Positions 1,201 to 36,144 of a stretch of DNA of 64,000 nt are shown piece by piece (positions within the stretch are counted from its first letter, which is position 1; every line of letters starts with the position of its first letter). Source of the stretch: Myxococcota bacterium (GTDB lineage Bacteria; Myxococcota_A; UBA796; CAJQPC01). The position numbers and the translations under genes were made by a program. The notes under the pieces are model-generated. The model did not search any database, had not been told where the DNA came from, and saw nothing but the letters and a program-made list of their open reading frames with translations. The stretch spans positions 64,001-128,000 of the forward strand of contig JAZAMN010000059.1 in the NCBI GenBank assembly GCA_036229005.1. The letters are read 5' to 3'.

Positions 1201-1205
1201 GGTGT

Positions 1206-7675: not shown

Positions 7676-7711
7676 CGGGGTGGGGGGCTCTGGGGGCTGC
7701 GTCGAGATGGC

Positions 7712-15143: not shown

Positions 15144-16058
15144 CTAGCGCTCCGGCGCGTCCCCCGTATCCCCCACCCGCCACGCCGCCGGCACAACGAA
15201 GGCCAGGTAGCACCACAGGATGGCCTCCGAGAATCCGCCCAGGTTCAGGAAGACCCAGATCCCCAGGTGCAGCCCCAGCCCGCCGATGATCATCGGCCAG
15301 CGCAGGCGCCGGAAGAAGATCAGCGGCCAGCCCAGCTCGAACACCAGGGTGCCGTAGGTGGCGGCGATGGAGAACCACTCCATGGCGCGGGTGGCCAGCA
15401 CGTCCTCCATCTGGAAGCGCCAGTAGACCTGGGCGCTCAGGGCGTGCCAGACGGCCTCGCCGGACTGCCAGCGCTCCTGCATGACCTTGATGAGCCCCGT
15501 CTTGACGTAGAGCACGGCGGCCTGGAGCTGGAACAGGCGCAGCGCCCACTTGGAGGGCAGCCCAGGATCCGCCTTCCCCCTGCGCACTCGCAGCCATGCG
15601 TCGAAGGACCAGCTCCGCCCCAGGGGCATGAAGAGCATGTAGAAGCCGAACACCCGCAGGATGGCGTCCGAGCCGTCCGACCAGACCGGGTTGCGGTTGG
15701 CCGCGCTCAGGATGATGAGCCAGGCCAGGGGGAAGGTCACCCGCGTGAAAACGCCCGCGCCGGCCAGGGCCACCATCAGCAGGCCCGTCCCAAAGATGAG
15801 CTGCACACCCTCCAGGCTGCCCACCTGCCAGAGCGGGTTCGCGTAGAGGTTCCAGCGCGCCGGGCTCCAGTTGTCCAGGCGGGCCTGCACGCTGTAGGTG
15901 CCCGCGTCGGTGAGCATCCAGTCCAGCTCGCTGAACATCGGGACGTAGCACCAGAGCGCCAGGAGGGCCCAGCCGATGCGCAGCAGGGCCATGCGGCGCG
16001 GGTCCGTGGGGCCGAACCACCAGCGCTCCCAGGCGCTCCAGGCGGACTTCAGGGACAC
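15144..16058 (-). CDS. HTTM-domain (vitamin K-dependent carboxylase-like / SdpB-like) membrane protein
   Basis: MALLRIG, RNPVWSDGSD, QLQAAVLYVKTGLIK..W.SGEA, FELG, HLGI pattern; multi-TM; GTG start inferred. Confidence 0.8.
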   Translation of the reverse strand: MSLKSAWSAWERWWFGPTDPRRMALLRIGWALLALWCYVPMFSELDWMLTDAGTYSVQARLDNWSPARWNLYANPLWQVGSLEGVQLIFGTGLLMVALAGAGVFTRVTFPLAWLIILSAANRNPVWSDGSDAILRVFGFYMLFMPLGRSWSFDAWLRVRRGKADPGLPSKWALRLFQLQAAVLYVKTGLIKVMQERWQSGEAVWHALSAQVYWRFQMEDVLATRAMEWFSIAATYGTLVFELGWPLIFFRRLRWPMIIGGLGLHLGIWVFLNLGGFSEAILWCYLAFVVPAAWRVGDTGDAPER

Positions 16059-22180: not shown

Positions 22181-23503
22181 TCAGCTACCGCTGAACTGGA
22201 CATTCGCGAAGAACAGGGTGGGCAGACGGTAGGACGCGAAGGTCCAGGGGTCGTTGTCTGCCTCGATGAAGGCCGCCATCAGCTCCAGCAGGTTGCCGCT
22301 GACGTTCATCTCCGAGAGGTTCTGCACCCACTCTCCGTTCTCGAAGAGCTGGCCTCGGATTCCAAAGGAGTAGTTCCCGCTGGCCGGGTTCGAGTTGCCC
22401 CCCAGGAAGGAGGTCACCCGGATGGCCTTGGGGTGGTCCTTGGCGATCTCCCGCCAGTGCCGCGTTCCGGGCGCCATCACCACGTTGCTGGTGCCGCCCG
22501 TGGTGGGCTCCATCTCCAGCTTGCGGGCGTGGTACAGGTCCAGCAGGTAGGTGTCCAGGCGCCCGTTGGTGAACAGGCTGCGGGTGCGGGCCTTGCGGCC
22601 GTCGCCGTCAAAGGGCTTGGAGCCCATGCCCCGGGGGATGGTGGGGTCGTCGACCAGCGTGAACGCGCTGGAGCCCAGGGTCTGTCCCAGCTTGCCCAGG
22701 TACATGGACCGGCCGGTGTGCAGGTTTCCCCCGGACATCGGGGCGATCATCGCGCCGATCAGCCGGCTCGCGGTGCGCCGGTCCAGGATCAGCGTGTAGC
22801 TGCCAGAGGCGCAGGCCGAGGTGTTGCGGACCTCGGTGGCGCGCTCCCAGAGGTCGTCCGCCAGGTGCTGCACGCTGGGCACGTCGGCCATGTGCGAGGC
22901 GTTGTAGAAGCTGTAGGTCTCGGGCAGCTTGCCGGAGGGCTCCTTGAGGGTGAGCATCCCCCCCTGCCCAAAGTGGGTGCGGGCCTGCTGGGCCGAGAAG
23001 CCATTGGAGAACACCGCCGCAGATTGGGAGCGGACCTCCCAGATGTAGCTGGTGGCCGAGACGAGGTCACCGGTGGCGCCCGCGAGGATGGTGTCCTCGA
23101 GCTCCTTGATGGCCTCCTGGCGCTGCTCGGGGCCCCGGGCGTTCATGCTCGCGGCGTCGTCGTTGTCCAGACTGACCGGGTCCAGGGAGCCCATCTCGTC
23201 GAAGGGGAGCATCACCCGGTCCGGGTCTGGCTCCAGGTAGCGGGTGCCGTCGACGGCGCGCTGCAGGAAGGCCTTGAGGGCCTCCGGACGCAGGTCGCTG
23301 GTGCCGTGGGTGGAGTAGCGCCCGTCCACCAGCAGGCTCACCGAGAGCCCCAAGGTCGACGACTCATGCACGCGCTCCAGCTTTCCGGCGCGCTGCTGCA
23401 GCTCGACCTCGACGCCCTGGGAGCTCCAGGCCTTGACCTGCTCCGCGCCCATGTTCGTGGCCAGCTCCACCGCCTTCGCGGCTGCATCCATCAGCTCAGA
23501 CAT
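22181..23503 (-). CDS. pmbA: TldE/PmbA family protein
   Basis: LVDDP..GSKPFDGDG, NPASGNYS, SGNL; downstream of tldD. Confidence 0.85.
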   Translation of the reverse strand: MSELMDAAAKAVELATNMGAEQVKAWSSQGVEVELQQRAGKLERVHESSTLGLSVSLLVDGRYSTHGTSDLRPEALKAFLQRAVDGTRYLEPDPDRVMLPFDEMGSLDPVSLDNDDAASMNARGPEQRQEAIKELEDTILAGATGDLVSATSYIWEVRSQSAAVFSNGFSAQQARTHFGQGGMLTLKEPSGKLPETYSFYNASHMADVPSVQHLADDLWERATEVRNTSACASGSYTLILDRRTASRLIGAMIAPMSGGNLHTGRSMYLGKLGQTLGSSAFTLVDDPTIPRGMGSKPFDGDGRKARTRSLFTNGRLDTYLLDLYHARKLEMEPTTGGTSNVVMAPGTRHWREIAKDHPKAIRVTSFLGGNSNPASGNYSFGIRGQLFENGEWVQNLSEMNVSGNLLELMAAFIEADNDPWTFASYRLPTLFFANVQFSGS

Positions 23504-24942
23504 CACTCGCCTCCCACGACCAGGCTGGCCACGCGCACGGTGGGCTGCCCCTGTGAGACGGGCACCCCCTGTCCATCCTTTCCACAGGTCCAGCCGCCCT
23601 CGTCGAGCACCAGATCCGAGCCCACCATGTCCACCTGCTCCAGGGCCGCGGGCCCGTTGCCGATGATGTTCACGTCCTTGATCGGGCGCGTCAGCTTGCC
23701 GTCCTCGATCAGGTACCCGGTCTTCATGTAGAAGGTGAAATCACCCGCGCCGATCTGCACCGCCCCGTTGGAGAAGGAGGTCGCGTAGATGCCGCGCTTG
23801 GTGTTCTTGATGATCTCCTCGGGGTCGTGCGGGCCCGGGTCCATGTAGGTCGACCGCATGCGCGGCAGGGGGTGGTGCCGGAAGCTCTGCCGGCGGCCGC
23901 TGCCCGTGGGCGCCACGCCGTAGTGGCTGGCCGAGATCTCATCGTGCATGTACGAGCGCAGCACGCCGTTCTCGATGAGCACGGTGCGCTCGGGCTCGTT
24001 GCCCTCGTCGTCCACGTTGATTGCCCCGCGGGCCCCGGGGACGGTGCCGTCGTCGACCACGGTCACAAAGTCCGGGGCCACCTTCTGGTCCATGCGCGCG
24101 GCGTAGATGCTCACGCCCTTGCGGTTGAAGTCGGCCTCCAGGCCGTGCCCGATGGCCTCATGCAGCAGGATTCCGCTGGCGCCCGCGGCCAGGACCACCG
24201 GCATGTCCCCAGCGGGGGGCTTGCCCGCGTCCAACAGGAAGAGCGTGCGCTCGACGGCCTTCTGCACCATGCGGTCGATGCGGGCCTGGTCCGAGTAGAA
24301 CTCCAGGCCAGCGCGCTGGGCCAGGTTGTAGGAGTTGGACTCCCGGACGTCCCCCTGGACCGCCGTGCACACCACGTGGGCCCGGGTCATCGGCTGGTAG
24401 TCCTCGGCCATGCGGCCGTCCGGCCGGGCCAGCAGGATCCACTTCTCGACGTCGGCCAGGCTGGTCTGCACCTTCTCGATGCGGGGATCCAGCTTGAACG
24501 CCGCCTCTTCCCAGGCGCGCACCATGGGCACCCGCTTGTCCATGCCCACGATCGACCAGGGGTCGGTCACCGGGTAGCGGTCCGGCAGGGCCAGGGGGCT
24601 CAGGTCCACCGGCGCGACCCCAGGGGTGCTCCGGGCGATGCCCGCGGCCGTACGGGCAGCGCGCAGCATGGCCTCCAGGCTGAGGTCCTCGGTGAAGGCG
24701 TAGCCGATCTGGTCGCCCACCCGGGCGCGCACGCCCAGGCCCAGGTCCACGTCGGTGGAGGCCCGGTTCACCTTGGAGTCGGTGAGCGCCACGGCGGTGC
24801 TGACCTTGTGCTCAAAGAAGAGGTCACAGTCCGTGGCCCCCAGGGACAGGGCAGCGCGCATCACCTGGTCCAGGACCTCGGGGGTGATGCCGAACTGCTC
24901 AAAGTGCCCCGGCGCGGCCGGGTTCAGCTCATTGGGATGCAT
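23503..24942 (-). CDS. tldD: TldD metalloprotease
   Basis: LLHEAIGHGLEAD, DDEG, PRM, CGKDGQGVPV..GQP. Confidence 0.92.
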   Translation of the reverse strand: MHPNELNPAAPGHFEQFGITPEVLDQVMRAALSLGATDCDLFFEHKVSTAVALTDSKVNRASTDVDLGLGVRARVGDQIGYAFTEDLSLEAMLRAARTAAGIARSTPGVAPVDLSPLALPDRYPVTDPWSIVGMDKRVPMVRAWEEAAFKLDPRIEKVQTSLADVEKWILLARPDGRMAEDYQPMTRAHVVCTAVQGDVRESNSYNLAQRAGLEFYSDQARIDRMVQKAVERTLFLLDAGKPPAGDMPVVLAAGASGILLHEAIGHGLEADFNRKGVSIYAARMDQKVAPDFVTVVDDGTVPGARGAINVDDEGNEPERTVLIENGVLRSYMHDEISASHYGVAPTGSGRRQSFRHHPLPRMRSTYMDPGPHDPEEIIKNTKRGIYATSFSNGAVQIGAGDFTFYMKTGYLIEDGKLTRPIKDVNIIGNGPAALEQVDMVGSDLVLDEGGWTCGKDGQGVPVSQGQPTVRVASLVVGGE

Positions 24943-24963: not shown

Positions 24964-26877
24964 TCAATTTGAACCCATAACCGTCGAGGGCAAGGCCCAC
25001 TGGGCCGCCCCGTTCTGGACCCAGCGCGCGTGGACATCGATCCACCAGGCGCGGAGCGCGGCCCCATCGCAGTCGCCCTCCCAGTCCTCATCACAGCCGG
25101 TGGCGTAGTCCCAGCTCCCCAGATCCGGCAGGTGATAGCTCCAGATCGACCCCTCGGCCCGCATGGCCAGCGCCCGGTGCAGCGAGAGGTCGAGCTGCGC
25201 CAGGTCCCGCTCCGAGAGCTCCTGCCCCGCCCCCCGCCCGAGCACAAAGCACTCCCGCAGCAGCAGGGTCCCGCAGCCCTCGTACGAGAAGGCGGCCCGA
25301 CTGTCCGAGGGCACAAAGCGCACGGGGCCCCCCACATCGTGGCCCGCATCCGCCGCCGTGGCCGCGCTCCAGGGCTGCCAATCATGGAGCCCCAGCGGCC
25401 AGCCCTCCTTGGCCCGCGGGTCCCCGCCGTGCGGAACGGCGTCCAGCACCGACATGCCCTGAAAGCCCACCACCGCCGGGACCGAGAGCCCCTCCAGAGC
25501 CGCGACCCAGTCCTCACCGTCATCCCACATGGGCGCCATGCCGCTCCAGTGCAGCGGCTCGACCCCAAGGCCAGCAACGTCCTGCGCCCCCGCCTCCAGA
25601 AAGTCCGCCACGCAGGCCTGATCCGCACCGCAGCCCGAGGTCTCGTGCACCAGCACGCCGAACTCCACCCGGTCCAGCGCCAGCAAGGCCTCCAGGGGCT
25701 CCAGCTCCTGGCACTGCTGCACGCGCCGGGCGTAGTGCGGGGTGATGTCGAGCGCCGTGGTGCCGGGCATCTCCGCCAGCAGCCGCCGGTTCCGGACCGC
25801 GTTGCCCACATAGTGGCGCACGGACACATCCCCCGTGCAGGGCGCGTCCTCGTCGGGGGACCGGGGCTTCTCCAGGAAGCTCTGGGCATGGATCCCCAGC
25901 GGTGGGCCCTCCAGCAGCGGGCGCTCATCGACGTAGACCTCGACCCCCTGGGCGTCCAGCACCAGCACCTCGAAGCTGGGCAGCGTCGCCACGTCCAGCA
26001 GCTCCCCCTGGATCAGCAGCTCGGCCTCGCCATCCTCCAGGCGCCAGAGCCCGGCGTCCCCCACCGCGTACAGCGCCTCCCCCAGCCCAGCGATGCGCCA
26101 CACGCTGTCGTCCTGCCAGATCCCCCCTCCAGGGTCCCGCAGGCCGCCCTCCCCCAGCGCGACCCACACCCCGTCGGCGGCCTCCTCGATGTCCTCGACC
26201 GACCCGATCCCCGGCAGGTCCAGGCCACCCGTGAGCCCGGTGGTGGTCCCGACAAGGTCCCCCTCCATCACCTGCACCCCCTCCGGGAGAGAGAGGAGCT
26301 GCTGGACCTCCAGGCTCTCGAGGTCCACCACGAACACCCCTTGGTCAGTCCCCACCCACAGCACCCCGTCCACCAGCGAGGCACTGCTGACCCCGCTCAA
26401 GCCAAGGTCGGTGACCTCGACGGCGCGCAGCCAGTCCCAGGGGTGGGTCTGCAGGGGATCCAGGTCCAGGCGGTGCAGGAGGCCCTGTCCGGACACCCCC
26501 CACCCCGTCTCCCCATCCGGAGAGATCGCCAGCGCCGCAAAGCGCGGCTGCACGCCCCGGTTGAGCTCGACCTCGCCGCTCTGGCAGTCGCCCTGGCGCT
26601 CCCCCGACTCGGAGACGGCCGGGAACTTCCACGCGGGCAGACAGGCAGCGCTGGGGCCGTGCTCATGGCGCGCGTCCAGGACCCGGGTCGAGCCCTGCTG
26701 GAGCACGAAGCTCAGGGGCTGTTGGCGCTGGACCACCAGGGCGCGGGGTTCGGTCAGCTCAAGCTCGGTGCGGAGCATGAAGCGGAAGTCGTCCACCGGG
26801 ACCGCGGGCCAGTCCGCCCAGGGGTCGGCGCTGTCTTGGGGCGGAGCGCAGCGGCAGGCCAGGAGCATCCAGAGCAC
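24964..26877 (-). CDS. Hypothetical exported protein/lipoprotein (beta-propeller-like N-half, possible deacetylase-like C-half)
   Basis: 637 aa; MLWMLLAC; LWVGTDQG and VWVALG strand repeats; domain call weak. Confidence 0.55.
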   Translation of the reverse strand: MLWMLLACRCAPPQDSADPWADWPAVPVDDFRFMLRTELELTEPRALVVQRQQPLSFVLQQGSTRVLDARHEHGPSAACLPAWKFPAVSESGERQGDCQSGEVELNRGVQPRFAALAISPDGETGWGVSGQGLLHRLDLDPLQTHPWDWLRAVEVTDLGLSGVSSASLVDGVLWVGTDQGVFVVDLESLEVQQLLSLPEGVQVMEGDLVGTTTGLTGGLDLPGIGSVEDIEEAADGVWVALGEGGLRDPGGGIWQDDSVWRIAGLGEALYAVGDAGLWRLEDGEAELLIQGELLDVATLPSFEVLVLDAQGVEVYVDERPLLEGPPLGIHAQSFLEKPRSPDEDAPCTGDVSVRHYVGNAVRNRRLLAEMPGTTALDITPHYARRVQQCQELEPLEALLALDRVEFGVLVHETSGCGADQACVADFLEAGAQDVAGLGVEPLHWSGMAPMWDDGEDWVAALEGLSVPAVVGFQGMSVLDAVPHGGDPRAKEGWPLGLHDWQPWSAATAADAGHDVGGPVRFVPSDSRAAFSYEGCGTLLLRECFVLGRGAGQELSERDLAQLDLSLHRALAMRAEGSIWSYHLPDLGSWDYATGCDEDWEGDCDGAALRAWWIDVHARWVQNGAAQWALPSTVMGSN

Positions 26878-26919: not shown

Positions 26920-28290
26920 TCAGGGGGCGGCCAGGGGGAGCTCCAGCACAAAGAGCGCGCCGGGGCCGTCGATGGGCATCAGGCGTACATCTCCGCCGTG
27001 CTCCCGCGCCATGCGGCGGGCCAGACTCAGGCCCAGATCCCGCGCGGAGGCCGGCTCAAAGAGCTGCTCGCCCATCGCCTCGGGGATCCGGGGGCCGAAG
27101 TCCCGCACAAGGCAGTGGGCGCGGTCCCCGATCCGGCGGGTGTCGACCTCGATCCGCCCCGCCCGCTCCGCGCGGAGGACCGCGTTGTGGAGCAGCTTCC
27201 CGACGATCTGGTGGGCCACGGACTCCGTGACGGCGACCTGCGCCTCGCCAAGCCCCAGGGACACCTGCAGCTCAAGCTCGGGGCTGATGATCTCCATGCT
27301 GCGGAGCATCACCTGGCAGAGGTGGTCCAGCGAGCTCGTGCCCTGCGCCGCCCAGGGGCCGTCCAGCCGAAGCGCCTCGCGGGTGATCGTGCTGGCCTGC
27401 AGGAGCGCCACGGACATCTCCCGCAGCTCCTCGCGCTCGCCGTGCTCCTGGCTGAGCAGCTCCAGGTTGCCCCCCAACACCGCGAGCTGGTTCCGCATCT
27501 GCATGAGCGCCCCGCGATAGCCCGTCGCCTTGAGCGCCTGGTCATGCAGCTCCCGGACCACAGGCCCCTGCTCGGGGGCGGCGACGCTGCGCTCGGCCTC
27601 ACACACCGCCCCCCGGAGCGCACCCTCCCGCTCGCCGGCCACGAGCCCCATCTTCAAGCTGCGCTTGCGCCCGTCGAAACAGGTCAGCTCGACGACGCTG
27701 GTGGAGCCGGCGTTGTGTTGCTCACGGACCAGCGCGCTCCATTGGCCGTCGGGCAGGCGGCTGGCCAGGCTCGCGCGTCCGGCGGGCCAGCCCCCGAGCG
27801 CCGCGGAGAAGGCCTCGTTCCAGGTGAGCAGGTTCCCCTGCTGGTCCGCCTCGAAGAGCCCCACGGGGATGTCCGCGAAGAGGCGTCGGTAGCGCTCCTC
27901 CGCCACGCGCAGGGCGTCCTCCCGCCGCTGCGACTCCATGGCGCGCTCGATGATGTTGGCCATCGAGCCCGCCTCCCAGGGCTTGCGCATGTAGTGCCAG
28001 ACGCGCCCCTGCTGGATCGCCCGCACCACGTCCCCCGGCTCGGAGAAGTAGCCGGTGAGCAGGATGCGGATGGCCCGGGGCTGCTCCTCGGCGAACCAGG
28101 CCAGGAAGTCCACGCCGGTCTCCCGCGGGAGGCGGTCGTCGCTGATCACGACGTCGATGCGGCGCTCGGCCACGATCTCCCGCGCCAGCTCGGCCGAGCC
28201 GGCCTTGAACACCTGGAAGTCATCCTCGAAGGTGGCTTCCAGACTCTCCAGGACCAACTCGTCGTCGTCGACGACCAGCAAGACAGGCAT
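26920..28290 (-). CDS. Hybrid REC-PAS-histidine kinase-like protein with degenerate H-box
   Basis: LVVDDD..VISD..LLTG..KPW receiver; RYRRLF..PVG PAS; LLHNA, DFGP, LGLS ATPase boxes. Confidence 0.82.
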   Translation of the reverse strand: MPVLLVVDDDELVLESLEATFEDDFQVFKAGSAELAREIVAERRIDVVISDDRLPRETGVDFLAWFAEEQPRAIRILLTGYFSEPGDVVRAIQQGRVWHYMRKPWEAGSMANIIERAMESQRREDALRVAEERYRRLFADIPVGLFEADQQGNLLTWNEAFSAALGGWPAGRASLASRLPDGQWSALVREQHNAGSTSVVELTCFDGRKRSLKMGLVAGEREGALRGAVCEAERSVAAPEQGPVVRELHDQALKATGYRGALMQMRNQLAVLGGNLELLSQEHGEREELREMSVALLQASTITREALRLDGPWAAQGTSSLDHLCQVMLRSMEIISPELELQVSLGLGEAQVAVTESVAHQIVGKLLHNAVLRAERAGRIEVDTRRIGDRAHCLVRDFGPRIPEAMGEQLFEPASARDLGLSLARRMAREHGGDVRLMPIDGPGALFVLELPLAAP

Positions 28291-28387
28291 GGTGGGGGTC
28301 GAGTCCACTGAGACGGAGTCCTCGTTGCCCCAAAAGGATACCCCCCGCGAGGCCACCAAGGCGCACTCAGCCCTCTCCCAGGGGCAG

Positions 28388-29410
28388 GTGCACACCCTCG
28401 CAGGCCCCCTCGCCGCCTTGCTGAACGAGCGCGCCACCCGGCAGGCACAGGCCACGCTCTCGCTGGAGCTGGAGGAGGGGCTGTCGGGCGCGGACCGCCT
28501 TCGGCTGAGCTGGAGGGCCCACCCCCAGGGCCTGGATGGGCTCCGGGGCTCGCTATGGACCGATGCCCGCCAGCGAGGTGCGGCTGCCCTGAACGCACTC
28601 CCCGCCCCCATGGAGCAGCAACGCTCAGGCCTGCTGGGCCACCCCGAGCTGCACGGCGAGCTCTTCATCGCTCTTGTCTTTCACTTGCAGGAACCGCCGC
28701 CGGAGCGGGTCCCCACCGCACAGCTCGCGGGGCGAACGCACGACCGCTACTACCGTGAGCTCCCGGACATGCCGGGCGACCTGGACAGCGCGGCCGCCAT
28801 CCTCCTGAGCGGGCTGCCCCAGGTGGCTCACCTGCGCGAGCAGGCCCGGACCCGCCTGGAGTGGGCCCTGGCGCAGAGCCCCGTGCCCGTCTGGGAGTCT
28901 GGCGGCTGGTATGGCCCACACTGCCCCGCTGTCACCGGCCGGGCGCTGATGGCCGCGGGTGCGCTGGGCCTGAGCGTCCCCGACGCCGCCATCGCCCCCC
29001 TGCGCGCCATCCAGGGCTGGGCCCGCTCCCCCCACTACCCGGACGCCGTCGTGGCCAGCGCGCTGGTGCTGCGGGGTCTGGAGGCCGTTGGCCAGGACCA
29101 CCCGGGGCTCCGTCGACTGCTCGCGACCGCGCCCTGCGGGAGCTGGTCTCCCCTCGCCGTCGCCGCCAGCGTCGAGGCCGTGGGGCCCGCGCTCTCCCCG
29201 CGCCGCCGCGAGCAGCTCCTGGTCCGTCTGCTGCGCACCCAGCGCTTTGACGGCGCCTGGGGGCCCAGCCCCTGGTTCATGGTCCCCGCGCCCCAGGGAG
29301 GGATGCAGCCCTTTGGGGACGCCGCGTACACCACCGCGGCGGTCCTCAGTGCGCTGAGAGCACTCCAGCCTGCTCCTTGGCGGGACCTGCCAGGGGCAGC
29401 AGCACGCTGA
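28388..29410 (+). CDS. Class II terpene cyclase / prenyltransferase (alpha-alpha barrel)-like protein
   Basis: ELPDMPGDLDSAA (DxDD-like), LLRTQRFDGAW (QW motif), YTTAAVLSAL; start uncertain (28289 or 28388). Confidence 0.6.
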   Translation: MHTLAGPLAALLNERATRQAQATLSLELEEGLSGADRLRLSWRAHPQGLDGLRGSLWTDARQRGAAALNALPAPMEQQRSGLLGHPELHGELFIALVFHLQEPPPERVPTAQLAGRTHDRYYRELPDMPGDLDSAAAILLSGLPQVAHLREQARTRLEWALAQSPVPVWESGGWYGPHCPAVTGRALMAAGALGLSVPDAAIAPLRAIQGWARSPHYPDAVVASALVLRGLEAVGQDHPGLRRLLATAPCGSWSPLAVAASVEAVGPALSPRRREQLLVRLLRTQRFDGAWGPSPWFMVPAPQGGMQPFGDAAYTTAAVLSALRALQPAPWRDLPGAAAR

Positions 29411-31730
29411 AGCGCGCGCCCCCGTCCGGGGGATCGTCCTGCCAGATCCGCCCGCCGTGCAGCGTCACGAAGCTCGCGCACAGCGACAGCCCCAGCCCGG
29501 ACGCGTTGCTCTCGTCCCCGGTGGTCTCGAAGGGGTCGAACAGGGTGCGCTGCAGCTCCGGGGGGATGCCCGGGCCCTGGTCCTGGACCACCAGCAGCAG
29601 GTCGTCGCCCTTCTCCTGGAAGCGCAGGGTGATGACCCCCTCCGCCGGGCTCATCTTCACCGCGTTGTGGAGCAGGTTGTAGAGCACCTGGTGCACCAGC
29701 ACGGGGTAGCCGTTGAGGCGCGGCGGGTCCCCCTCCACCACCAGCTTGAGGCCCTTGCGGTCCATGCGCTTCTGCAGCAGGCGCTGGGAGATGGCCAGCC
29801 CCTCCATGGGGTCGAAGCGCTGGAGGCGGTCGATGCCCGGCCGCGAGAACACCTGCAGGTTGCGGATGATCTCGCTGGCGCGCCGCACGCCGTCCTGGGT
29901 GAGCCGGCCGAACTTCATGGCCCGCTCGACCTTCCCCTTCTCCAGCGCGGTCATGAGCTGATCCATGCTGGAGAGGGCCACCCCCAGCGGCGAGGAGAGC
30001 TCGTGCCCGATGCCCGCCGACAGGGTGCTCAGCGCGGCGACCCGCTCCCAGCGAAAGGAGCGCAGCCGCGCCTCGTCGCGCTCCGCCGTGCGGCGCTCCA
30101 CCAACACCTCGAGCCCGCGGTTCAGGTCCTGGATGGTCTCGAGCGCCATCCGGTGCGAGGCGGTGGCTCCCATCGCCGCGGAGGCCGACTGCAGCGCCTG
30201 CAGATCCCGGGGCATGGGCAGAGGTCCGGGGCCCTTCCCGACGACCACGGCGCCGACCAGCCCCTGCGAGGTGCCCACCGGGATCAGCAGCTCGCCCTGG
30301 TGAGCGTCCAGCCACGCCTGGGCGGCGTCCTCCCGCTGGCTGTCGGAGAGCACCGGAGCCGTCGTGGGCATGCCCTCAAGGGGGAGGTCCTCAGACGCCG
30401 GATCCGAGCGGAGGATGAGGTGAACGGGGCGACTCCCGGTCACGGCCCGCACCCTGGACAAGAAGGCCTCCCGCGCAGCCTCCAGGCTGTCCATGCCAGC
30501 GAGGTCATGGGGGAGCCGCTCCAGGGCCTCCCGGGCCGCCTGCTGTTCACGCCCCAGGGCCTGCGGGACCATGCCCAGCAGCAGACCAGCCGCCGGGATC
30601 AGCAGGAAGAGGGGGACCGAGATCCGCTCGGTGGCCGCGCCGTAGGCGATCACCAGCAGGGCCGCGGCGCCCACCGCACCGGACCACTGCAGCACGCTGC
30701 GCAGCAGGAGCAGCCGGACGCGGCTGGCGGCCAGGCCCAGGCCGATGGAGATGGGGAGGAAGGCCAGCGCGGTCCCGACCATCAGTACGTCGGGGGGCAG
30801 GGGCTGGCCCAGCCAGTTGGGCGCGGAGAAGATCAGGGTGACGAACACCGTCGCCCCGAAGCCCCAGCCGATCCAGGCCGCCTGCAGGCGCTGCACCACC
30901 TGGCGGCTCTTGATGGCCCCGTAGATCAGCGCGCCCACCGCCCCAAAGGTGGGGATGAAGGTGGAGACCTGGATGACACCCGAGTAGGTGAACAGGTCCA
31001 GCAGGATGGCGACCGGGGTCAGCGCCCAGCCCACGACCAGCATCCAGCGCACGCGGCGCTCCCGCACCAGGGGCTGGGGGAAGCTCAGGGCGAAGGCCAG
31101 CAGATGCAGCGTCCCGCCAAAGGCGCCGACCCCATTGATCAGGTGCTGGAACACGGAGACCCAGGTCGGCGCGAACACACCCCGCTGGGCGACGTAGAAG
31201 AGCGGGATGAGGTTCAAGGAGGCGCCGACGGCGACCAGCATCAGATCGCGCCCCAGCTTCCCGCCGTGTCGGCGCCCCGCCCAGAGCCCGCTGGCGGCCA
31301 CCAGCAGCGCAGCGAAGAGCGCGGCTGCGAAGCCCTTGCCGCCGCGTAGGGAGCTGCGCGGGGTGAGGAAGAGCTGCTGGCCATCCGCCAGGCGCACGGA
31401 GACGGAGTCGCTCTGGGCAGCGTTCAGCGCCTGCTGCAGCGCCACCCAGTCCAGGAGCGCGCCCATGCCGAAGCTGAGCGCGGGGTCGTGCACGAACTCG
31501 TCCGCGACGGAGACCCCAGCGATCTCCACCACGCACTGCTCTTGGACGACGAACTCGCAGTGCTGTCCGTCGCGGGGGGCCTCCAGCCCAAGACTGCGAC
31601 CTTGGGCCAGGCCCAGGAGCGAGAACAGGCTCGCCAGGAGAACCAAGAAGCCGGCTCCCCAGTAGCTCCAGGCGAGCCTCCTCTCAGCTTGCCATGTCGG
31701 GTCGGATTCCGGACTCGGCGCGCTCTTCAT
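29346..31730 (-). CDS. Multi-TM sensor histidine kinase with GAF-like domain
   Basis: About 8-9 TM segments; LLIPV..LVG.VVVG GAF-like; GIGHELSSPL H-box, NLLHNA, DQGPG, GLGL. Confidence 0.9.
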   Translation of the reverse strand: MKSAPSPESDPTWQAERRLAWSYWGAGFLVLLASLFSLLGLAQGRSLGLEAPRDGQHCEFVVQEQCVVEIAGVSVADEFVHDPALSFGMGALLDWVALQQALNAAQSDSVSVRLADGQQLFLTPRSSLRGGKGFAAALFAALLVAASGLWAGRRHGGKLGRDLMLVAVGASLNLIPLFYVAQRGVFAPTWVSVFQHLINGVGAFGGTLHLLAFALSFPQPLVRERRVRWMLVVGWALTPVAILLDLFTYSGVIQVSTFIPTFGAVGALIYGAIKSRQVVQRLQAAWIGWGFGATVFVTLIFSAPNWLGQPLPPDVLMVGTALAFLPISIGLGLAASRVRLLLLRSVLQWSGAVGAAALLVIAYGAATERISVPLFLLIPAAGLLLGMVPQALGREQQAAREALERLPHDLAGMDSLEAAREAFLSRVRAVTGSRPVHLILRSDPASEDLPLEGMPTTAPVLSDSQREDAAQAWLDAHQGELLIPVGTSQGLVGAVVVGKGPGPLPMPRDLQALQSASAAMGATASHRMALETIQDLNRGLEVLVERRTAERDEARLRSFRWERVAALSTLSAGIGHELSSPLGVALSSMDQLMTALEKGKVERAMKFGRLTQDGVRRASEIIRNLQVFSRPGIDRLQRFDPMEGLAISQRLLQKRMDRKGLKLVVEGDPPRLNGYPVLVHQVLYNLLHNAVKMSPAEGVITLRFQEKGDDLLLVVQDQGPGIPPELQRTLFDPFETTGDESNASGLGLSLCASFVTLHGGRIWQDDPPDGGARFSVLLPLAGPAKEQAGVLSAH

Positions 31731-31932
31731 CAAAAGACTCGACCAGGGCTTCGGCGTCCACGGTCTCCAGAGGGAAGCCCCAGCTATCAGCGAGCTGGAC
31801 CAGGGCCTCTTCGCGACCGGGGGCGTCTGCGTTCAGGACAAAGCATGCCACGGCGAAGTGGTTCTCATGTCCGGGGGTCTTGCAGTAGTCGACAAAGGCC
31901 AGGGCCTTGTCGGAGGGGTTCTCGGGCAGCAT
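31684..31932 (-). CDS. Small 82-aa protein (RiPP precursor or PqqD/RRE-like)
   Basis: AGAGGAG Shine-Dalgarno 6 nt before ATG; lies between the rSAM fusion and the HK, overlapping the HK start. Confidence 0.75.
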   Translation of the reverse strand: MLPENPSDKALAFVDYCKTPGHENHFAVACFVLNADAPGREEALVQLADSWGFPLETVDAEALVESFDEERAESGIRPDMAS

Positions 31933-31952
31933 TGTGTACTCCTCTCAGGGGT

Positions 31953-33899
31953 TCACGGGGTTGAAGACGCGCGGGCTCCGCGGCCCGCCAGCAGCGAGAG
32001 CGCCTGCTGACAGCGACCGTCGTTCCCACCAAGTTCGAGCCCTTCGCCGACCACGACGGCCTGGCAGCCGCCGCAGATGTCCTGGTGCTCACAGGCGGCG
32101 CAGCCCAGGTGTCCGCGGGCGCGCAGCGCGGCGGCTGTGGGGTGGCGCCGGGCGCGCTCGACGAAGCCGCGGACGCTGTCCAGCTCCACCCGCCCCAGCG
32201 GGGCGCGGAAGGGGTGACAGGGGCTCAAGCTGCGGTCGGCCTGCACGCAGATCCGCGCGCCGCCGGCCTCACACTGCCAGAGGCTCTCCCGGGGCAGGCC
32301 CAGACCCTCCAGCAGCGGGTTGATCACGGGGTAGTCAGCCACCACCGTGCTCAGTCCGCGCTTCTCCAGCGCGGCGACCTGCTCGGCGCAGCGCAGCAGA
32401 TCCGCGGTGCTCAGGCCCCGTCCAGCGGCGGGCGTCATGCCCGGCTTGGTGAACAGCGGCCACAGGGTCAGCGGCCGCCACTGGCCCATGGACTCAGCCA
32501 GGTACTGGCCCCAGGCGGCCACGCCGTAGTCCAGCAGCTCGCCGGTCAGGATGGTCGCCGGGGTGGCCAGCACGCCGTGCTCAGGCGCGATCGCCAGGGC
32601 GTGCAGCGACTTGGCGGTCTGCGTGCGACCGCGCACGCGCTCGTGGACCCCCGGGGGCCCATCGATGCTCACCATCAGGTGGACCTTTGCGCGCAGCGCC
32701 CCCAGCCTGGCCATCTCCGCGTGGTCCAGCAGCCCGCCGTTGGTGTTGATCAGCACCTGCGCGATGCCCAGCGCGTCCGCGCGCTCCAGGACCTCCCAGA
32801 TGTGCGGGTAGAAGAAGGGCTCGCCGCCGGTCAGGTGTAGCACGGTGCGGTGTCCGACGGCCTCCTCCAGGAGCGCGAACACCAGCTCCAGAGGCAGCTC
32901 GTCCAGATCGCTCAGGTCGGGCTCCTGCGCGAACACAAAGCAGTCCGGGCAGCGCAGGTTGCAGCGCCGGGTGAGCTCGATGTCCAGGACCAGGCGCTCC
33001 CCACCAAAGGCCGCCCGCGCGCCCAGCCGCAGCTTGCGACGCCCCAGGGCCTTGCGGCGCGCCTGGATGTGCGTCTGCAGCAGAGGCCCCAGCTCGAACG
33101 CAGCCGCCCGCACCTCGCAGGCACCCAGAGCGCTGTCGATGGCGTGCAAGTGGGTTCGAAGCGGTCCGGTCTTCCATGCCCGGCGCTCCGCAGCCCCCAG
33201 CTCCTCGACCCCATGACGACTCGGGTCCAGGCCCAGGATGGCCAGGTACGACGAGCGCTGTCCTTCAGCCAGATCCCGCGCCCCACCCAGCAGGTCGTTG
33301 GTGAGCTGCAGGGGCACGCCCAGCGCCTCCACCAGCTCAAACAGCGGCTCCACAAGCTCCGGCCGGCCGGCCTCCCGCGCCAGGGACACCAGCGGCAGCG
33401 CCATGGGCAGGTACTTGGCGCCCTGCAGCGCGGTGGCCTCTTCGGTCCAGGGCGCAGCGCTCGTGCGCAGGGTCAGGTCCCGGAGGGCGGCGTCCACAAA
33501 GGCCCCCATCCCCCGCGTCCAGTCCTGGGGCTCCAGCGACATCCACCCCAGCGCCGTCCCGGTCAGGAGCTGCTGGAGGTAGGCCCCGCGCGGCTCCGCG
33601 CCCTCGTCCACCAGGTCGTCCTGGATGCGCACCGCCAGATACAGGGCGAGCATCGCCTGCTGCGCGCGCTGAACGGACGCCTCGGGGAGTTCCAGCCCCT
33701 GCCCCAGCCAGGCCAGCAGCACAAAGGCCGGGGAGCCCTCCGGCCCGACAAACAGCCCCTCCAGGCCGCCCATGGGCTCCAGGCGCGCCCTCAGCGCATC
33801 GAGCTGCTCCATCAACAGACGCTGCGGGAGGGGGGGGAGGCTGCGCAGCGCGGCCTCAAATCGGGCCACACCGCCCTGCAGACCGTGGCTCTCGGACAT
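31953..33899 (-). CDS. Fusion: class I isoprenoid synthase/prenyltransferase + radical SAM/SPASM domain (648 aa)
   Basis: IQDDLVD and QLTNDLLG; CNLRCPDC, TGGEP, NTNG, VSIDG; SPASM CEAG..PC..CAAC.....CGGC..C; TGATG overlap with the S8 gene fixes the start. Confidence 0.88.
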   Translation of the reverse strand: MSESHGLQGGVARFEAALRSLPPLPQRLLMEQLDALRARLEPMGGLEGLFVGPEGSPAFVLLAWLGQGLELPEASVQRAQQAMLALYLAVRIQDDLVDEGAEPRGAYLQQLLTGTALGWMSLEPQDWTRGMGAFVDAALRDLTLRTSAAPWTEEATALQGAKYLPMALPLVSLAREAGRPELVEPLFELVEALGVPLQLTNDLLGGARDLAEGQRSSYLAILGLDPSRHGVEELGAAERRAWKTGPLRTHLHAIDSALGACEVRAAAFELGPLLQTHIQARRKALGRRKLRLGARAAFGGERLVLDIELTRRCNLRCPDCFVFAQEPDLSDLDELPLELVFALLEEAVGHRTVLHLTGGEPFFYPHIWEVLERADALGIAQVLINTNGGLLDHAEMARLGALRAKVHLMVSIDGPPGVHERVRGRTQTAKSLHALAIAPEHGVLATPATILTGELLDYGVAAWGQYLAESMGQWRPLTLWPLFTKPGMTPAAGRGLSTADLLRCAEQVAALEKRGLSTVVADYPVINPLLEGLGLPRESLWQCEAGGARICVQADRSLSPCHPFRAPLGRVELDSVRGFVERARRHPTAAALRARGHLGCAACEHQDICGGCQAVVVGEGLELGGNDGRCQQALSLLAGRGARASSTP

Positions 33900-34792
33900 C
33901 ACGCCACCGCCGGCGCAGACGAGGACACCGAGAAGCTGCGCGCGAGATCCAGCGCGCCCGAGCCCAGCCGCTCCCGCAGCCCCGCCACACCCAGCTTGGG
34001 GGAGTGCTGCAGCAACAGGGCAGCGGACCCCGCCACCAACGGCGCCGCGAAGCTGGTCCCGCGCTCCCACCCGTATCGCCGGGGACAGAGCGCCACCCGC
34101 ACGCCGCTCCCCGGGGCCAACAGCTCGGGCTTCACCGAGCGCCTGTCCTCCCAGCAGAGCAGCCCCTCCGGGCTCTCCGGGCCGGGCTCTCCCCCGCGGT
34201 CCAGGCTGCCGACGCCCAGCGCCTCGGGGTAGTTCCCCGGGCTGCCCGTCTCGCCCTGGCGTCCGCCGTTGCCGATGCTGGCGACCACCAGGATGCCGCT
34301 CCGCTCGGCTTCCTGCACAAGATCGCGGATCCACGCGTCCTGACCACGCCGCTCCAGGGTCATCAGGACCAGGTCCACCTGACCGTGCTCCAGCAACCAC
34401 TTCAGGCCAGCCCGGACGTCCTCGGGCTCAGCCCGGGAGACCCGTCGATGGCGCCCCATCCGGTAGACATCGGCGACCACCAGCGTGGCCTCGCGCGCGA
34501 GCCCCTGGTTGTCCCCCACCAGCAGGCTGGCCACGGCGGTCCCGTGGTCGGGGATCGGCGCCTGACCGGGAGAGATGCGGTGCACCTGGATGCGGCCGGA
34601 GGCGACCGCCCCACTCAGCTCGGGGTGCTCCAGGTCCACGCCACCATCCACCAGCCCGATGCGGACGCCGTCACCGCGTAGCCCGAGCGACCACGCGACC
34701 TGTGCACCGATGGCGTGCAGGTGCCAGGCAGGGTCCAGCGCTTGTACGGGCGTTGCCCGCGGCGCACGGGCAGCCTGAATGCTCGATGACAT
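33899..34792 (-). CDS. S8 (subtilisin-family) serine peptidase with no evident signal or pro-domain
   Basis: LVDGG (Asp), HGTAVA (His), SIGN (oxyanion Asn), GTSFAAP (Ser). Confidence 0.92.
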   Translation of the reverse strand: MSSSIQAARAPRATPVQALDPAWHLHAIGAQVAWSLGLRGDGVRIGLVDGGVDLEHPELSGAVASGRIQVHRISPGQAPIPDHGTAVASLLVGDNQGLAREATLVVADVYRMGRHRRVSRAEPEDVRAGLKWLLEHGQVDLVLMTLERRGQDAWIRDLVQEAERSGILVVASIGNGGRQGETGSPGNYPEALGVGSLDRGGEPGPESPEGLLCWEDRRSVKPELLAPGSGVRVALCPRRYGWERGTSFAAPLVAGSAALLLQHSPKLGVAGLRERLGSGALDLARSFSVSSSAPAVA

Positions 34793-34861
34793 GGTGGGTC
34801 CGGGATGACAGGCCCCCCCAAGGACAGCGCGCTCCAACGCGGTGGAGGCGTATACACCGTC

Positions 34862-34885
34862 TTGACCCTCAGGTCCACACGTCAA
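34862..34885. promoter_or_regulatory. TTGAC-N14-GTCAA inverted repeat upstream of the S8/rSAM operon
   Basis: TTGAC 34862-66, GTCAA 34881-85; 70 bp upstream of the S8 ATG. Confidence 0.3.
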
Positions 34886-34942
34886 CCTCCCAATATAGCC
34901 TTGATGATCGGGGTCGCTCCTACTTCGGTATTACATCCCATT

Positions 34943-35761
34943 TCATTCCTCCCCCGAGACCTGCCTCGCGACCCACCCGTGGACCGTTTCTGGAGCAAGT
35001 GCAAGCAGATAGAGCAGCAGCATCGACGCCGAGAAGGTGGCGACTGGAAGACTTACATAGATCCCCGCGTGCAAGATCACCCCAAATCCAAGGATCCATT
35101 TGCGGGCAGATGGGAGCCAGATGCCTAGGGCAATGGCGTACTCCAGCAGAATGACCGCTACGCTCAAAGCGACCATCAACCAATGGAATCCGGGCCACGC
35201 CGGGTAGTCCGAGCCCTGGTACAGGACCATGAAATACTGCTCCATCCGCTCCCCCGAGGCGTGCCCCCACTCGGTCTTGGACCAAGCTCCAAAGAGGTAG
35301 ATCGCGCTGAGCTGCACCTTGATCAAGTGGCGTCCCCAGTCCAGTCCCCGCTCCCGGGGAGCGTCGCCGCGCCGCAGCGCCAAGGCCCGATCCAGCGAGA
35401 AGCTCCCTCCGCAGGGGGTCAGCGCGAGCAGCACGGGCAGCGTGAACAGCAGGTAGGTGTGGTGGTGGGTGTAGGGCTCCACCCCCATCTGGTGGCCCAG
35501 GCCGTAGTACAGAAAGAGCCCCAGCGCGCCCGTGATCGCGGTGCTCAGGCGGGAGAAGAGCCCCAGGAACATGGCGGCCGTGGCCGCATACCAGAGCAGC
35601 GAGAGGCCGATGCGCCAGGGCTGGATGTGCTGGTAGAGGACAAAGTCGCTGCCCAGCCGGGACCAGAGCAGCAGTGGCCACCCGATACGGACCAGCGAGA
35701 CCGAGCGCGTCGAGGCCTCCTTGGAGAAGAAGGCCACGAGCCGGGCTCTCAGGGCGTGCAC
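34943..35761 (-). CDS. HTTM-domain membrane protein
   Basis: SLVRIG, YTHHHTYL, FSLD, QLSAIYLFGAWSK..W..GE, LHAGI. Confidence 0.78.
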   Translation of the reverse strand: MHALRARLVAFFSKEASTRSVSLVRIGWPLLLWSRLGSDFVLYQHIQPWRIGLSLLWYAATAAMFLGLFSRLSTAITGALGLFLYYGLGHQMGVEPYTHHHTYLLFTLPVLLALTPCGGSFSLDRALALRRGDAPRERGLDWGRHLIKVQLSAIYLFGAWSKTEWGHASGERMEQYFMVLYQGSDYPAWPGFHWLMVALSVAVILLEYAIALGIWLPSARKWILGFGVILHAGIYVSLPVATFSASMLLLYLLALAPETVHGWVARQVSGEE

Positions 35762-36144
35762 AGGTTCTCCTCGGGGTCACCCTGGGGCTTCCACCCGCGA
35801 ATCCCGCCGCAGCGGCAGTCCATGGTGAGCTCCTGAACCCCGAGCGCGCGACAGATCTCCCTCCCCTGCCGCCTGGCCTGGTCCACGTCCCGCAGCATGC
35901 GCACCTTCCGGGGCGCCTCCCAGCGGTGCTCGTAGCCCAGGGTCTCCAGCCGCTGCACCGGCGTCCGCTGAGGGCCCGCCAGATAGCGCACGTCACAGAT
36001 GTCCGTGCCGTAGCCGATGAACATCAGCCAGCGCTTCACGTAGGGCACGCGCAGGCCGAGCACCTGGGTGGCGAAGGGCCCCCCCAGCATCCACAAGGTC
36101 AGGGAGGCGAAGAGCCCCGCTCGAAGCCAGATCTTCCACCGCAT
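35749..36144 (-). CDS. HTTM-partner protein
   Basis: N-terminal TM then KRWLMF (WxMF); overlaps the HTTM gene. Confidence 0.55.
   Translation of the reverse strand: MRWKIWLRAGLFASLTLWMLGGPFATQVLGLRVPYVKRWLMFIGYGTDICDVRYLAGPQRTPVQRLETLGYEHRWEAPRKVRMLRDVDQARRQGREICRALGVQELTMDCRCGGIRGWKPQGDPEENLCTP

Follow-up and report, generated by a model that had tools for sequence, protein, structure and literature searches.

A conserved gene cluster of marine bacteria joins a predicted peptide prenyltransferase-radical SAM fusion, a candidate precursor peptide and a sensor kinase

Introduction

Does the genome of a Myxococcota bacterium encode a system that makes a lipidated peptide and senses it with a kinase encoded next to it? 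The question is raised by six genes between positions 26920 and 34885 of a 64,000-nucleotide stretch of contig JAZAMN010000059.1 (assembly GCA_036229005.1), which we refer to in its full length as the window. A preliminary description of this DNA had noted four tightly linked genes on the minus strand, coding for a subtilisin-type (S8) serine peptidase, a fusion of an isoprenoid-synthase domain with a radical S-adenosylmethionine (rSAM) SPASM enzyme, a small protein and a multi-transmembrane histidine kinase, next to genes for a class II cyclase-like protein and a REC-PAS-kinase. From their likeness to the ComQ-ComX-ComP system of Bacillus it had proposed that they make and sense a modified peptide or a modified terpenoid.

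We report that the cluster is real, that it is uncharacterised and that it is conserved. It would belong to a known type of system, in which a peptide of ribosomal origin is modified with an isoprenoid and encoded beside its kinase, and is not a wholly new category. We infer its chemistry and signalling, that is, a modified peptide as the product and the kinase as the sensor of that product. The complete pathway, a conserved make-and-sense cluster in which a ribosomal peptide would be prenylated, radical-modified, terpene-cyclised, cleaved from its leader and sensed by the kinase, is put forward tentatively, with a probability that we place slightly below even.

Results

A predicted prenyltransferase domain paired with a radical SAM enzyme

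The central protein of the cluster is the fusion, which has 648 residues, is encoded at 31953-33899 on the minus strand and was assigned by a Pfam match to Radical_SAM together with the fold obtained with AlphaFold2 and Foldseek. Its N-terminal domain (N-domain, residues 1-300; 33000-33899, minus strand) has the class I fold of a trans-isoprenyl diphosphate synthase (trans-IDS). The AlphaFold2 model, based on an alignment of 19 sequences, has a predicted local distance difference test score (pLDDT) of 93.1 and a predicted template modelling (TM) score of 0.90, and Foldseek returned 14 PDB matches at E ≤ 0.001, from 2e-4 and with TM-scores of up to 0.71; the top matches listed were all trans-prenyl diphosphate synthases, namely polyprenyl, geranylgeranyl diphosphate (GGPP) and farnesyl diphosphate synthases. 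An Atlas look-up gave a 'class 1 isoprenoid biosynthesis enzyme family' and GGPP synthase (TM-score 0.75 by query), which are leads only, with scores of 0.84-0.86 under the 0.9 bar. Since a profile search against the PDB gave only marginal matches (E 0.014-3), of which the meaningful ones were all isoprenoid synthases, the identity of the domain was settled by the fold search. No Pfam family was reached above threshold, the sole match being SQS_PSY (E = 0.01, 16 bits against a cutoff of 26), and polyprenyl_synt (PF00348) matched neither the whole fusion at E ≤ 0.01 nor the N-domain alone at E ≤ 10. Residues R91, Q93, D94, D95, D98, K162, Q198, N201, D202 and D209 are invariant in all 19 N-domain sequences, standalone homologues included, and D94, D95 and D98 of the DDxxD motif are also invariant in 21 of 21 full-length homologues; invariant DDxxD and NDxxxxxxD motifs are as expected of a metal-dependent diphosphate-binding site. 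The modelled fold makes the N-domain a predicted peptide prenyltransferase. In a large protein database the fusion has 37 homologues, the window's own protein included (74-100% query coverage, E ≤ 2e-89), which are mostly metagenomic and 41-63% identical to the window protein.

The C-terminal half (residues 301-648; 31953-32999, minus strand) combines a Radical_SAM domain with SPASM-type auxiliary-cluster cysteines. Residues 307-444 match Pfam PF04055 (E = 1e-15, 58.7 bits against a cutoff of 29.5), the CX3CX2C motif (C313, C317 and C320) is invariant in the 21 full-length homologues, and the seven C-terminal cysteines C543, C561, C600, C603, C609, C612 and C630 are invariant or at least 90% conserved among them. 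The Pfam SPASM model (PF13186) is recorded on some homologues (P0011 and P0016) and gave no match to the window fusion at E ≤ 0.01. No curated NCBIfam family was reached, all scores lying at 34-63 bits against cutoffs of 170-850; the nearest matches, all well under cutoff, were ScmE, NirJ, SbtM, StsB and WgkB. The fusion has no PqqD-like recognition domain.

A search of public genome and metagenome contigs gave 32 further loci (L080, a duplicate of L004, was excluded, and L085 repeats L005), and we refer to the window, L001-L012 and L081-L088 as the near clade (n = 21). The fusion is a single open reading frame (ORF) in the window, L001-L008 (in L008 with a probable frameshift) and L081-L088. 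The N-domain and the rSAM enzyme are encoded by separate genes overlapping by 4 nt in L010-L012, and in L009 the halves are adjacent and the genes were not resolved by the caller; these loci belong to the near clade by similarity and context. Further away, an N-domain gene (~280-340 aa) is followed by a separate rSAM gene (~340-356 aa) in L013, L019 and L021, the rSAM gene precedes the N-domain gene, at times with intervening genes, in L014, L015, L017, L020, L022, L027 and L089, and L018 is the only locus without an N-domain, within its 19 kb. As the two are adjacent even when split, and in either order, the fusion records a functional pair, in the sense of a Rosetta stone.

The small gene has the features of a precursor peptide

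The 82-aa small gene (31684-31932, minus strand) starts 20 nt past the stop codon of the fusion and has GAGAGGAG and a 6-nt spacer ahead of its start; this strong Shine-Dalgarno sequence and the family alignments mark it as a gene, for a predicted precursor peptide. In its product, a helical leader with the motif LA..WG.PL....DAEALV is followed by an acidic linker and then by a C-terminal tail that reads ...GIRPDMAS. The counterparts in L001 and L004 are 76-77% identical to it, a higher identity than that of the fusion in these loci (60-62%). In most loci such genes lie directly 3' of the rSAM gene or, in the distant clade, ahead of the enzyme pair. In two family alignments, A3 and A6, the proteins share a helical leader (...LA..WG-h-x-L-S/T-x-x-E/D-A-x-x-L...), after which come an acidic linker and a tail that varies, and the profile from A3, built on 16 small proteins, recognised members on which it had not been trained, in L083 (1e-14), L022 (1e-6), L084 (3e-6), L086 (1e-4), L014 (5e-4) and L088 (9e-4). 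The variability of the tails has a fixed point at its end: of 27 tails, some read by eye, 24 end in Ser/Thr, two in Cys and one in Ala, examples being ...PDMAS, ...PGEFT, ...EIAWT, ...NVAYT, ...LTQCS and ...LAYFT. [quoted passage not shown] The leaders resemble, as judged by eye, those of the Nif11 and NHLP families in their G-h-x-L-S/T-x-x-E-A motif and acidic linker; Nif11-like leaders have been described as having a structured nucleus and an Asp/Glu-rich disordered part, to which the leaders here are similar. The sole Nif11 match among 15 small proteins scanned was that of L011 (E = 0.16).

Some loci depart from the single small gene. Two stand in tandem in L082 (6723-7440), a 203-aa gene with three leader-like repeats is found in L083 (5329-5940), and a 97-aa gene with SEACES/SEGCEV repeats lies upstream of the fusion in L081 (9519-9812). 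In the distant clade the precursors end in X-Thr repeats (...ACTCTCTCT, ...NTNTCTFTMT, ...MTNTNTNTNT and ...TCTCT; repeat cores at L014:9637-9969, L015:6958-7179, L017:9736-9897, L022:9690-9962 and L027:1-20), and the enzyme pair and precursors adjoin a methyltransferase gene, a SnoaL-like gene and an HExxH gene. These loci look like a second branch of the RiPP family, probably a non-signalling one.

We modelled the fusion in complex with the small protein and obtained a score of 0.70, the best of three controls scoring 0.01. This score was reached by 116 of 157 solved complexes and by 2 of 215 mismatched pairs, counts that hold roughly since our own alignments were used here. The model runs had at least 82% of their contacts in common, with a partner pLDDT of at least 78. 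In the modelled interface, fusion residues 235, 282-300 and 403 face residues 5-33 and 62-75 of the small protein, and the leader is predicted to dock on the helix formed by residues 282-300, which is the last of the N-domain and connects it with the rSAM half. The last seven residues of the small protein make no confident contact; a docked leader with an uncontacted end would fit a leader-guided enzyme with a free core. The model, which is a prediction, supports binding of the leader by the fusion.

The gene set recurs, and the sensor domain follows the enzyme

Component profiles were run on the six-frame ORFs of the 33 loci. As these profiles were trained on members of the same loci, the independent evidence lies in the untrained matches and in gene order. 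The sensor domain of the kinase was found in 16 of the 21 near-clade loci, the S8 gene in 11, the cyclase in 10 and a REC-HD-GYP response regulator in 9, and the small gene in 15 by profile and in another 3 by eye. Four of the five loci in which the sensor domain was missed are cut by contig ends: the contig of L003 ends 135 nt after the fusion, that of L085 ends inside the S8 gene, L087 is only 2 kb long, and L002 holds just the C-terminal half of the kinase, at the start of its contig. Across loci the kinase gene directly follows the small gene, often at a distance of 0-60 nt or with an overlap. Because the same set recurs in many unrelated contigs, the arrangement goes beyond chance. The hosts are high-GC marine bacteria, and many of the related contigs are labelled Myxococcota. 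In three loci a fusion of a Ser/Thr protein kinase with an nSTAND1 NTPase is encoded divergently upstream of the fusion enzyme (L005:6719-9571, L006:6807-9824 and L008:168-2981, all on the minus strand).

An even sample of the phylum (401 genomes from 254 genera) gave the same picture. The N-domain occurs in 25 of these genomes, over 16 genera, and the sensor domain in 13. The 6 genomes with a sensor match at E ≤ 1e-85 are exactly the 6 with an N-domain match at E ≤ 1e-75, and in 5 of them the two genes lie on one contig within 7 kb; the other seven sensor matches are weak (1e-11 to 1e-21), and none of the 19 genomes whose N-domain match is weaker gave a sensor match. The window's own genome has one copy. 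Strong matches to the kinase sensor domain are thus restricted to genomes carrying the enzyme, and the co-occurrence of the fusion with the small ORF, the protease and the kinase, by which the proposal of a common system could be judged, favours it in both the census and the phylum sample.

The same distribution bears on another explanation, which we consider somewhat unlikely, that the RiPP made by the cluster is a natural product that is secreted or acts on membranes, for instance an antibiotic or a surfactant. The kinase would then respond to some other cue (envelope state, a competitor) and only regulate the cluster, with no autoinducer loop. The biosynthetic support for it is the same as for a sensed peptide, and the distant clade (L013-L022 and L027) has the enzyme pair and precursors without this kinase, L020 giving a weak match only, so that the chemistry exists apart from the sensor. 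Moreover, prenylation gives peptides membrane activity and many lantibiotics are both antibiotic and inducer. On the other hand the sensor is dedicated, with strong matches only in genomes with the near-clade enzyme, its gene comes directly after the small gene, and immunity and transporter genes were not seen in the window cluster.

The sensor kinase and its likely phosphoacceptor

The sensor histidine kinase (795 aa; 29346-31733, minus strand) was assigned by its HATPase_c domain (E = 3e-25) and a multi-transmembrane hydropathy profile with ~10 hydrophobic segments. A first transmembrane helix is followed by a periplasmic segment of ~90 aa, ~8-9 more helices up to about residue 390, a GAF-like region, the H-box, which reads GHELSSPL in the translation, and HATPase_c. 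Pfam HisKA gave no match to the window kinase at E ≤ 0.01 and is reported for its relatives, which have GAF, HisKA and HATPase_c in their cytoplasmic part. Two cysteines of the outside segment, C59 and C67, are invariant in 12 sensors. The first possible starts, TTG at 31733 and ATG at 31730, give an overlap of 47-50 nt with the small gene, and there are no other in-frame ATG, GTG or TTG codons between them and the first transmembrane helix.

The hybrid REC-PAS-histidine kinase (26920-28359, minus strand; Pfam Response_reg 3e-15, PAS_8 1e-5, HATPase_c 1e-12) is likely the phosphoacceptor of the sensor kinase. The best NCBIfam match of its REC domain is the NosR-family REC of cyclic di-GMP (c-di-GMP) phosphodiesterases (1e-30). 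In 9 relatives a REC-HD-GYP response regulator takes its place, with the HDxGK, HHE and GYP motifs present in all nine, and the presence of this regulator in many relatives suggests that one output is the turnover of c-di-GMP.

The class II cyclase and the S8 protease

The convergent gene (28388-29410, plus strand) codes for a 340-aa monodomain class II terpene cyclase-like protein with a GTG start, identified by profile searches against the PDB and by Foldseek. The single sequence matched nothing in Pfam or NCBIfam. A profile of 7 homologues from related loci found squalene-hopene cyclase (3.5e-13), and the 30-sequence profile A5 gave squalene-hopene cyclase at 7.9e-24, 8pak, the monodomain cyclase of Cystobacter fuscus, at 3e-21 and MstE at 7e-10. 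Its AlphaFold2 model (pLDDT 86.3) had drimenol synthase, 8pak, 8paj and MstE as top Foldseek matches with TM-scores of ~0.6, and a representative library held 33 relatives at E ≤ 1e-30. P129, D131, D133, W169, D288 and W291 are invariant in the 30 sequences. The family consensus DADDAA represents the DxDD motif, and the PGDLDSAA of the window aligns with PADADSTA of 8pak; the central Asp of a DxDD-type motif is the catalytic acid. By sequence and fold the gene encodes a class II terpene cyclase. A literature search on the PDB codes 8PAK and 8PAJ gave nothing relevant.

A cyclase next to a class I-fold enzyme is the classic terpenoid pairing, and it raises the other product named in the preliminary description, a free modified terpenoid. 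The class I-fold domain would build or couple its prenyl chain, the class II cyclase would cyclise it and the rSAM half would tailor it, with the small protein as a regulator, chaperone or anti-kinase factor. The weak sequence matches of the N-domain include phytoene/squalene synthases, and rSAM enzymes that act on isoprenoid lipids are known (HpnH and Tes). Nevertheless, we regard this explanation as very unlikely: the cyclase is absent from 11 of the 21 near-clade loci, whereas the small gene is nearly always there and has the hallmarks of a precursor (variable tail, tandem copies, repeat cores, fixed C-terminal Ser/Thr); the protease is frequent in the set; the model docks the small protein on the enzyme; and the nearest rSAM/SPASM matches include the peptide maturases ScmE, SbtM, StsB and WgkB, as well as NirJ, all under cutoff. 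Between the two products first envisaged, the precursor-like small genes and the predicted docking thus favour the peptide over the terpenoid.

The S8 peptidase gene (33899-34885, minus strand) starts at TTG 34885 or ATG 34792, a choice that is uncertain, and shares one base of its TGA stop with the ATG of the fusion (GTGATGTCC). Its product matches Peptidase_S8 at E = 3e-28 (99.4 bits against a cutoff of 21.8) with the Asp, His and Ser motifs VDGGVD, DHGTAV and GTSFAAP, and its best NCBIfam matches, all under cutoff, were mycosin (2e-27), QhpE (6e-15) and PatA/PatG (6e-10). It is likely the leader peptidase. In L005, L006, L008 and L085 the peptidase is part of a 1400-aa S8-VWA protein, whose gene separates the small gene from that of the kinase. 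Pfam and a profile recovered the S8 genes of L005, L006, L008, L086 and L088, which are diverged and had been missed by tblastn.

A further explanation is that the modified small protein is retained in the producer. As a protein or peptide with a terpenoid on its C-terminus and a lipid anchor, it would act on the multi-transmembrane kinase from within the membrane side of the cell, as an intracellular switch and not as a signal between cells. In its favour, the set comes without an exporter gene, and a signal peptide is not evident in the S8 protein. About 60 residues of the small protein form a folded domain (partner pLDDT ~80), which occurs three times in the 203-aa form of L083, and a lipid moiety within the bilayer could be sensed by the ~9 membrane helices of the kinase. 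In eukaryotic CaaX proteins, too, lipidation of the C-terminus is the rule for anchoring to membranes. We nonetheless think this unlikely, as a protease gene is frequent (11 of 21 loci), the tails are hypervariable and the leaders conserved, like those of secreted RiPPs, and the kinase has a periplasmic segment of ~90 aa with the invariant C59 and C67. A missing exporter is not peculiar to this cluster either, for the ComX system is not known to have a dedicated exporter and the three-gene PalX system has none.

Genomic surroundings

The six genes were picked by codon-position GC, Pfam and comparison with relatives, because at a window G+C of ~70% the ORF lists are full of spurious frames. All the elements of the preliminary description were recovered at their place and on their strands: the four-gene minus-strand layout with its junctions, the isoprenoid-synthase fold of the N-domain (AlphaFold2 and Foldseek), the rSAM half with SPASM-type cysteines (Pfam and alignment), the flanking cyclase (PDB profiles and Foldseek) and REC-PAS-kinase (Pfam domains), and a cluster with no visible transporter gene. 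The cyclase gene converges with the kinase gene, with a 3' overlap of 65 nt, and diverges from that of the REC-PAS-kinase. Outside the cluster lie ordinary chromosomal genes, which code for PmbA/TldD, YebC, a universal stress protein, a sulfatase, flagellin and a resistance-nodulation-division (RND) pump. The stretch is present in DNA runs from seawater and marine metagenomes (4 studies); no RNA runs were among those listed.

Membership of the flanking genes was assessed by comparison with relatives. An HTTM-domain membrane protein is encoded just upstream of the S8 gene (34943-35761, minus strand), overlapping a 131-aa ORF (35749-36144); it is probably not part of the cluster, and both were rejected as members because L001 and L004 carry a DsbA-like gene at this place. 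A second HTTM protein is encoded at 15144-16058 (minus strand). At the other end, a 637-aa protein with a lipoprotein-like N-terminus (24964-26877, minus strand) has a 50% identical counterpart at the same place in L004 only and matched nothing in Pfam or NCBIfam. Two genes past the REC-PAS-kinase lies a PmbA/TldD metallopeptidase pair (22181-24942, minus strand), which also adjoins the cluster in L004. Microcin B17 is processed by PmbA/TldD proteases. The 637-aa protein and the pair, which are kept only in L004, the closest relative with context, are possible members of the cluster.

Further away, a 608-aa protein (45738-47564, minus strand) has long Gly/Ala/Pro/Arg-rich repeats (AGAGGAGGRPRP...), and under its gene lie tandem DNA repeats (46048-46808, periods 48 and 180), in the GC-richest stretch of the window (0.775). 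A flagellin gene with Flagellin_N and Flagellin_C domains is found at 13455-14864 (plus strand), which deserves mention since many related contigs are labelled Myxococcota.

Discussion

Comparison with known systems

The cluster shares with ComQXP the order of an isoprenoid-synthase-fold enzyme, a peptide and a multi-transmembrane kinase, a product from the C-terminal part of the precursor, the first Asp-rich motif of the enzyme, and the lack of a dedicated exporter. It differs in that there is no conserved acceptor Trp and that the enzyme lies under the threshold of Pfam polyprenyl_synt, the family (PF00348) to which ComQ belongs. Furthermore, the enzyme here is fused or paired with rSAM/SPASM, and the set also includes a class II cyclase and an S8 protease. 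It is found in high-GC marine bacteria, and in place of a DNA-binding regulator of the ComA type it has a REC-PAS-kinase or REC-HD-GYP protein as its output. A Trp acceptor of the ComX type, as the first analogy implied, thus did not hold, and what is conserved instead is a C-terminal Ser/Thr.

Closer still is PalQ-PalX-PalP of Paenibacillus alvei, which comprises a kinase, a precursor with a large structured NHLP-type leader and a prenyltransferase of the isoprene-synthase superfamily (PMC10853753). The acceptor of PalX is its C-terminal residue, inserted into the active site of PalQ, and it was an AlphaFold model that first led to the proposed complex of enzyme and precursor (same source). 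Both systems combine a kinase, a precursor with a structured leader and an enzyme of isoprenoid-synthase fold, with a complex modelled by AlphaFold. PalX, however, ends in Trp and the peptides here in Ser/Thr; PalQ is described as standing alone, without an rSAM, cyclase or protease gene; and the leader families differ, neither NHLP nor Nif11 models matching here.

Prenyl cyclisation on a peptide is also precedented. In ChrPC the C domain cyclises the prenyl group installed by the P domain, according to a 2026 review (PMC13290415, on Hubrich et al. 2024, Chem 10:3224). As described there, a trans-IDS-like domain acting on a ribosomal peptide is combined with a prenyl cyclase. The cyclase here is closest to the monodomain MstE and 8pak. 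In that account the prenyltransferase is fused to the cyclase and modifies an internal Trp, whereas here it is fused to rSAM/SPASM, with the cyclase encoded separately and convergently, and the set includes a dedicated kinase.

The rSAM half recalls other maturases. Among rSAM/SPASM enzymes with a subtilisin-like protease or a C-terminal target, QhpD works with QhpE, MftC acts on the C-terminal Tyr of MftA, and anSME acts on Ser/Cys. With these the fusion shares the CX3CX2C motif and seven auxiliary cysteines, an adjoining S8 gene (QhpE match 6e-15, under cutoff) and a substrate with a fixed C-terminal residue; it differs in reaching no curated family and in that its leader would be held, in our model, by the C-terminal helix of the prenyltransferase-fold domain. 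On the output side, the REC-HD-GYP neighbour in 9 of 21 near-clade loci is reminiscent of RpfC/RpfG, and points to a c-di-GMP output for a diffusible lipophilic signal. In the window, however, a REC-PAS-kinase takes this place, a modified peptide would be the signal where RpfC/RpfG has a fatty acid, and by name the sensor domain bears no relation.

The cluster stands apart from ComQXP, PalQXP and ChrPC in that its prenyltransferase-fold enzyme has an rSAM/SPASM partner, its peptides end in Ser/Thr and not in Trp, its cyclase is encoded separately, an S8 protease is frequent, the sensor family is dedicated to it and there is a link to HD-GYP. In literature searches we did not find a pair of prenyltransferase-fold and rSAM/SPASM peptide maturases described, which Hubrich et al. 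2024 and its supplements could change. The combination had been thought undescribed, and this still applies to the enzyme pair; the system as a whole is less isolated, since kinase-coupled peptide prenylation (PalQXP) and peptide prenyl cyclisation (ChrPC) are already published.

A proposed pathway

In light of these data we propose that, once the leader is bound, the free C-terminal tail with its Ser/Thr end would reach the active sites of the fusion. With a prenyl diphosphate as donor, the N-domain would prenylate the tail at or near this end. The rSAM/SPASM half would act by radical chemistry on the C-terminus or close to it, where the terminal Ser/Thr may be oxidised or oxidatively decarboxylated, or a crosslink may form. 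SPASM enzymes are able to oxidise Ser/Cys (anSME) and to oxidatively decarboxylate a C-terminal residue (MftC). In one hypothetical version, the terminal Ser/Thr would be oxidised at C-beta to a beta-carbonyl acid, which would lose CO2 to leave an enolisable terminus that could be alkylated by a prenyl cation. The monodomain class II cyclase would then protonate and cyclise the prenyl chain, and the S8 protease would remove the leader. The lipophilic product would exit the cell, the periplasmic/membrane sensor of the kinase would detect it, and the kinase would phosphorylate the neighbouring REC protein, the REC-PAS-kinase here and the REC-HD-GYP protein in many relatives.

Several observations weigh against this pathway. 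No transporter or exporter gene was seen in or adjoining the cluster, the nearest being the RND system at 1-8875, and no signal peptide is evident in the translation of the S8 protein. All characterised trans-IDS-like peptide prenyltransferases target Trp, according to the 2026 review (PMC13290415), and the tails of 22 aligned small proteins contain no conserved Trp. In a scan of 15 small proteins against Pfam and NCBIfam leader models, including Nif11 (PF07862) and NHLP, the window protein had no match and NCBIfam gave none, and in the complex model the last seven residues, which would carry the modification, are those that lack confident contacts. With scores under the Pfam polyprenyl_synt and SQS_PSY thresholds, the N-domain could have a ligand other than a prenyl diphosphate. 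The window cyclase has DLDS and not DxDD. The cyclase was not found in 11 and the S8 gene in 10 of the 21 near-clade loci, some of these misses being due to contig ends; L081, with its full context, has a different kinase and is the only locus with room for the sensor where it was missed; and L002 has no small gene adjoining the fusion. Finally, related genomes are not independent, and the co-occurrence counts, which describe an association and do not amount to a statistical test, overstate the number of independent events.

A more specific version of the proposal has a real but doubtful claim: a pheromone of Gram-negative marine bacteria, in which a Ser/Thr-ended ribosomal peptide would be converted to a cyclic-terpenoid peptide and read by a dedicated kinase with ~10 transmembrane helices, with a c-di-GMP output in many lineages. 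If true, it would be the first ComQXP-like circuit outside Firmicutes, its trans-IDS-like peptide prenyltransferase would be the first not to use Trp, and the radical reaction at the C-terminus of the peptide would be a new one.

Known peptide signals are scarce outside Gram-positive bacteria, and lipidated ones are scarce anywhere; the cluster is a testable candidate that encodes maker, substrate and sensor together. If the proposed pathway is correct, it would extend peptide prenylation by isoprenoid-synthase-fold enzymes beyond tryptophan and tie it to radical SAM chemistry and on-peptide terpene cyclisation, which would be useful for peptide lipidation. The HD-GYP link suggests that a secreted peptide may exert c-di-GMP control over the behaviour of marine and predatory bacteria. 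Even without signalling, the enzyme pair and its precursor family represent an uncharacterised RiPP family.

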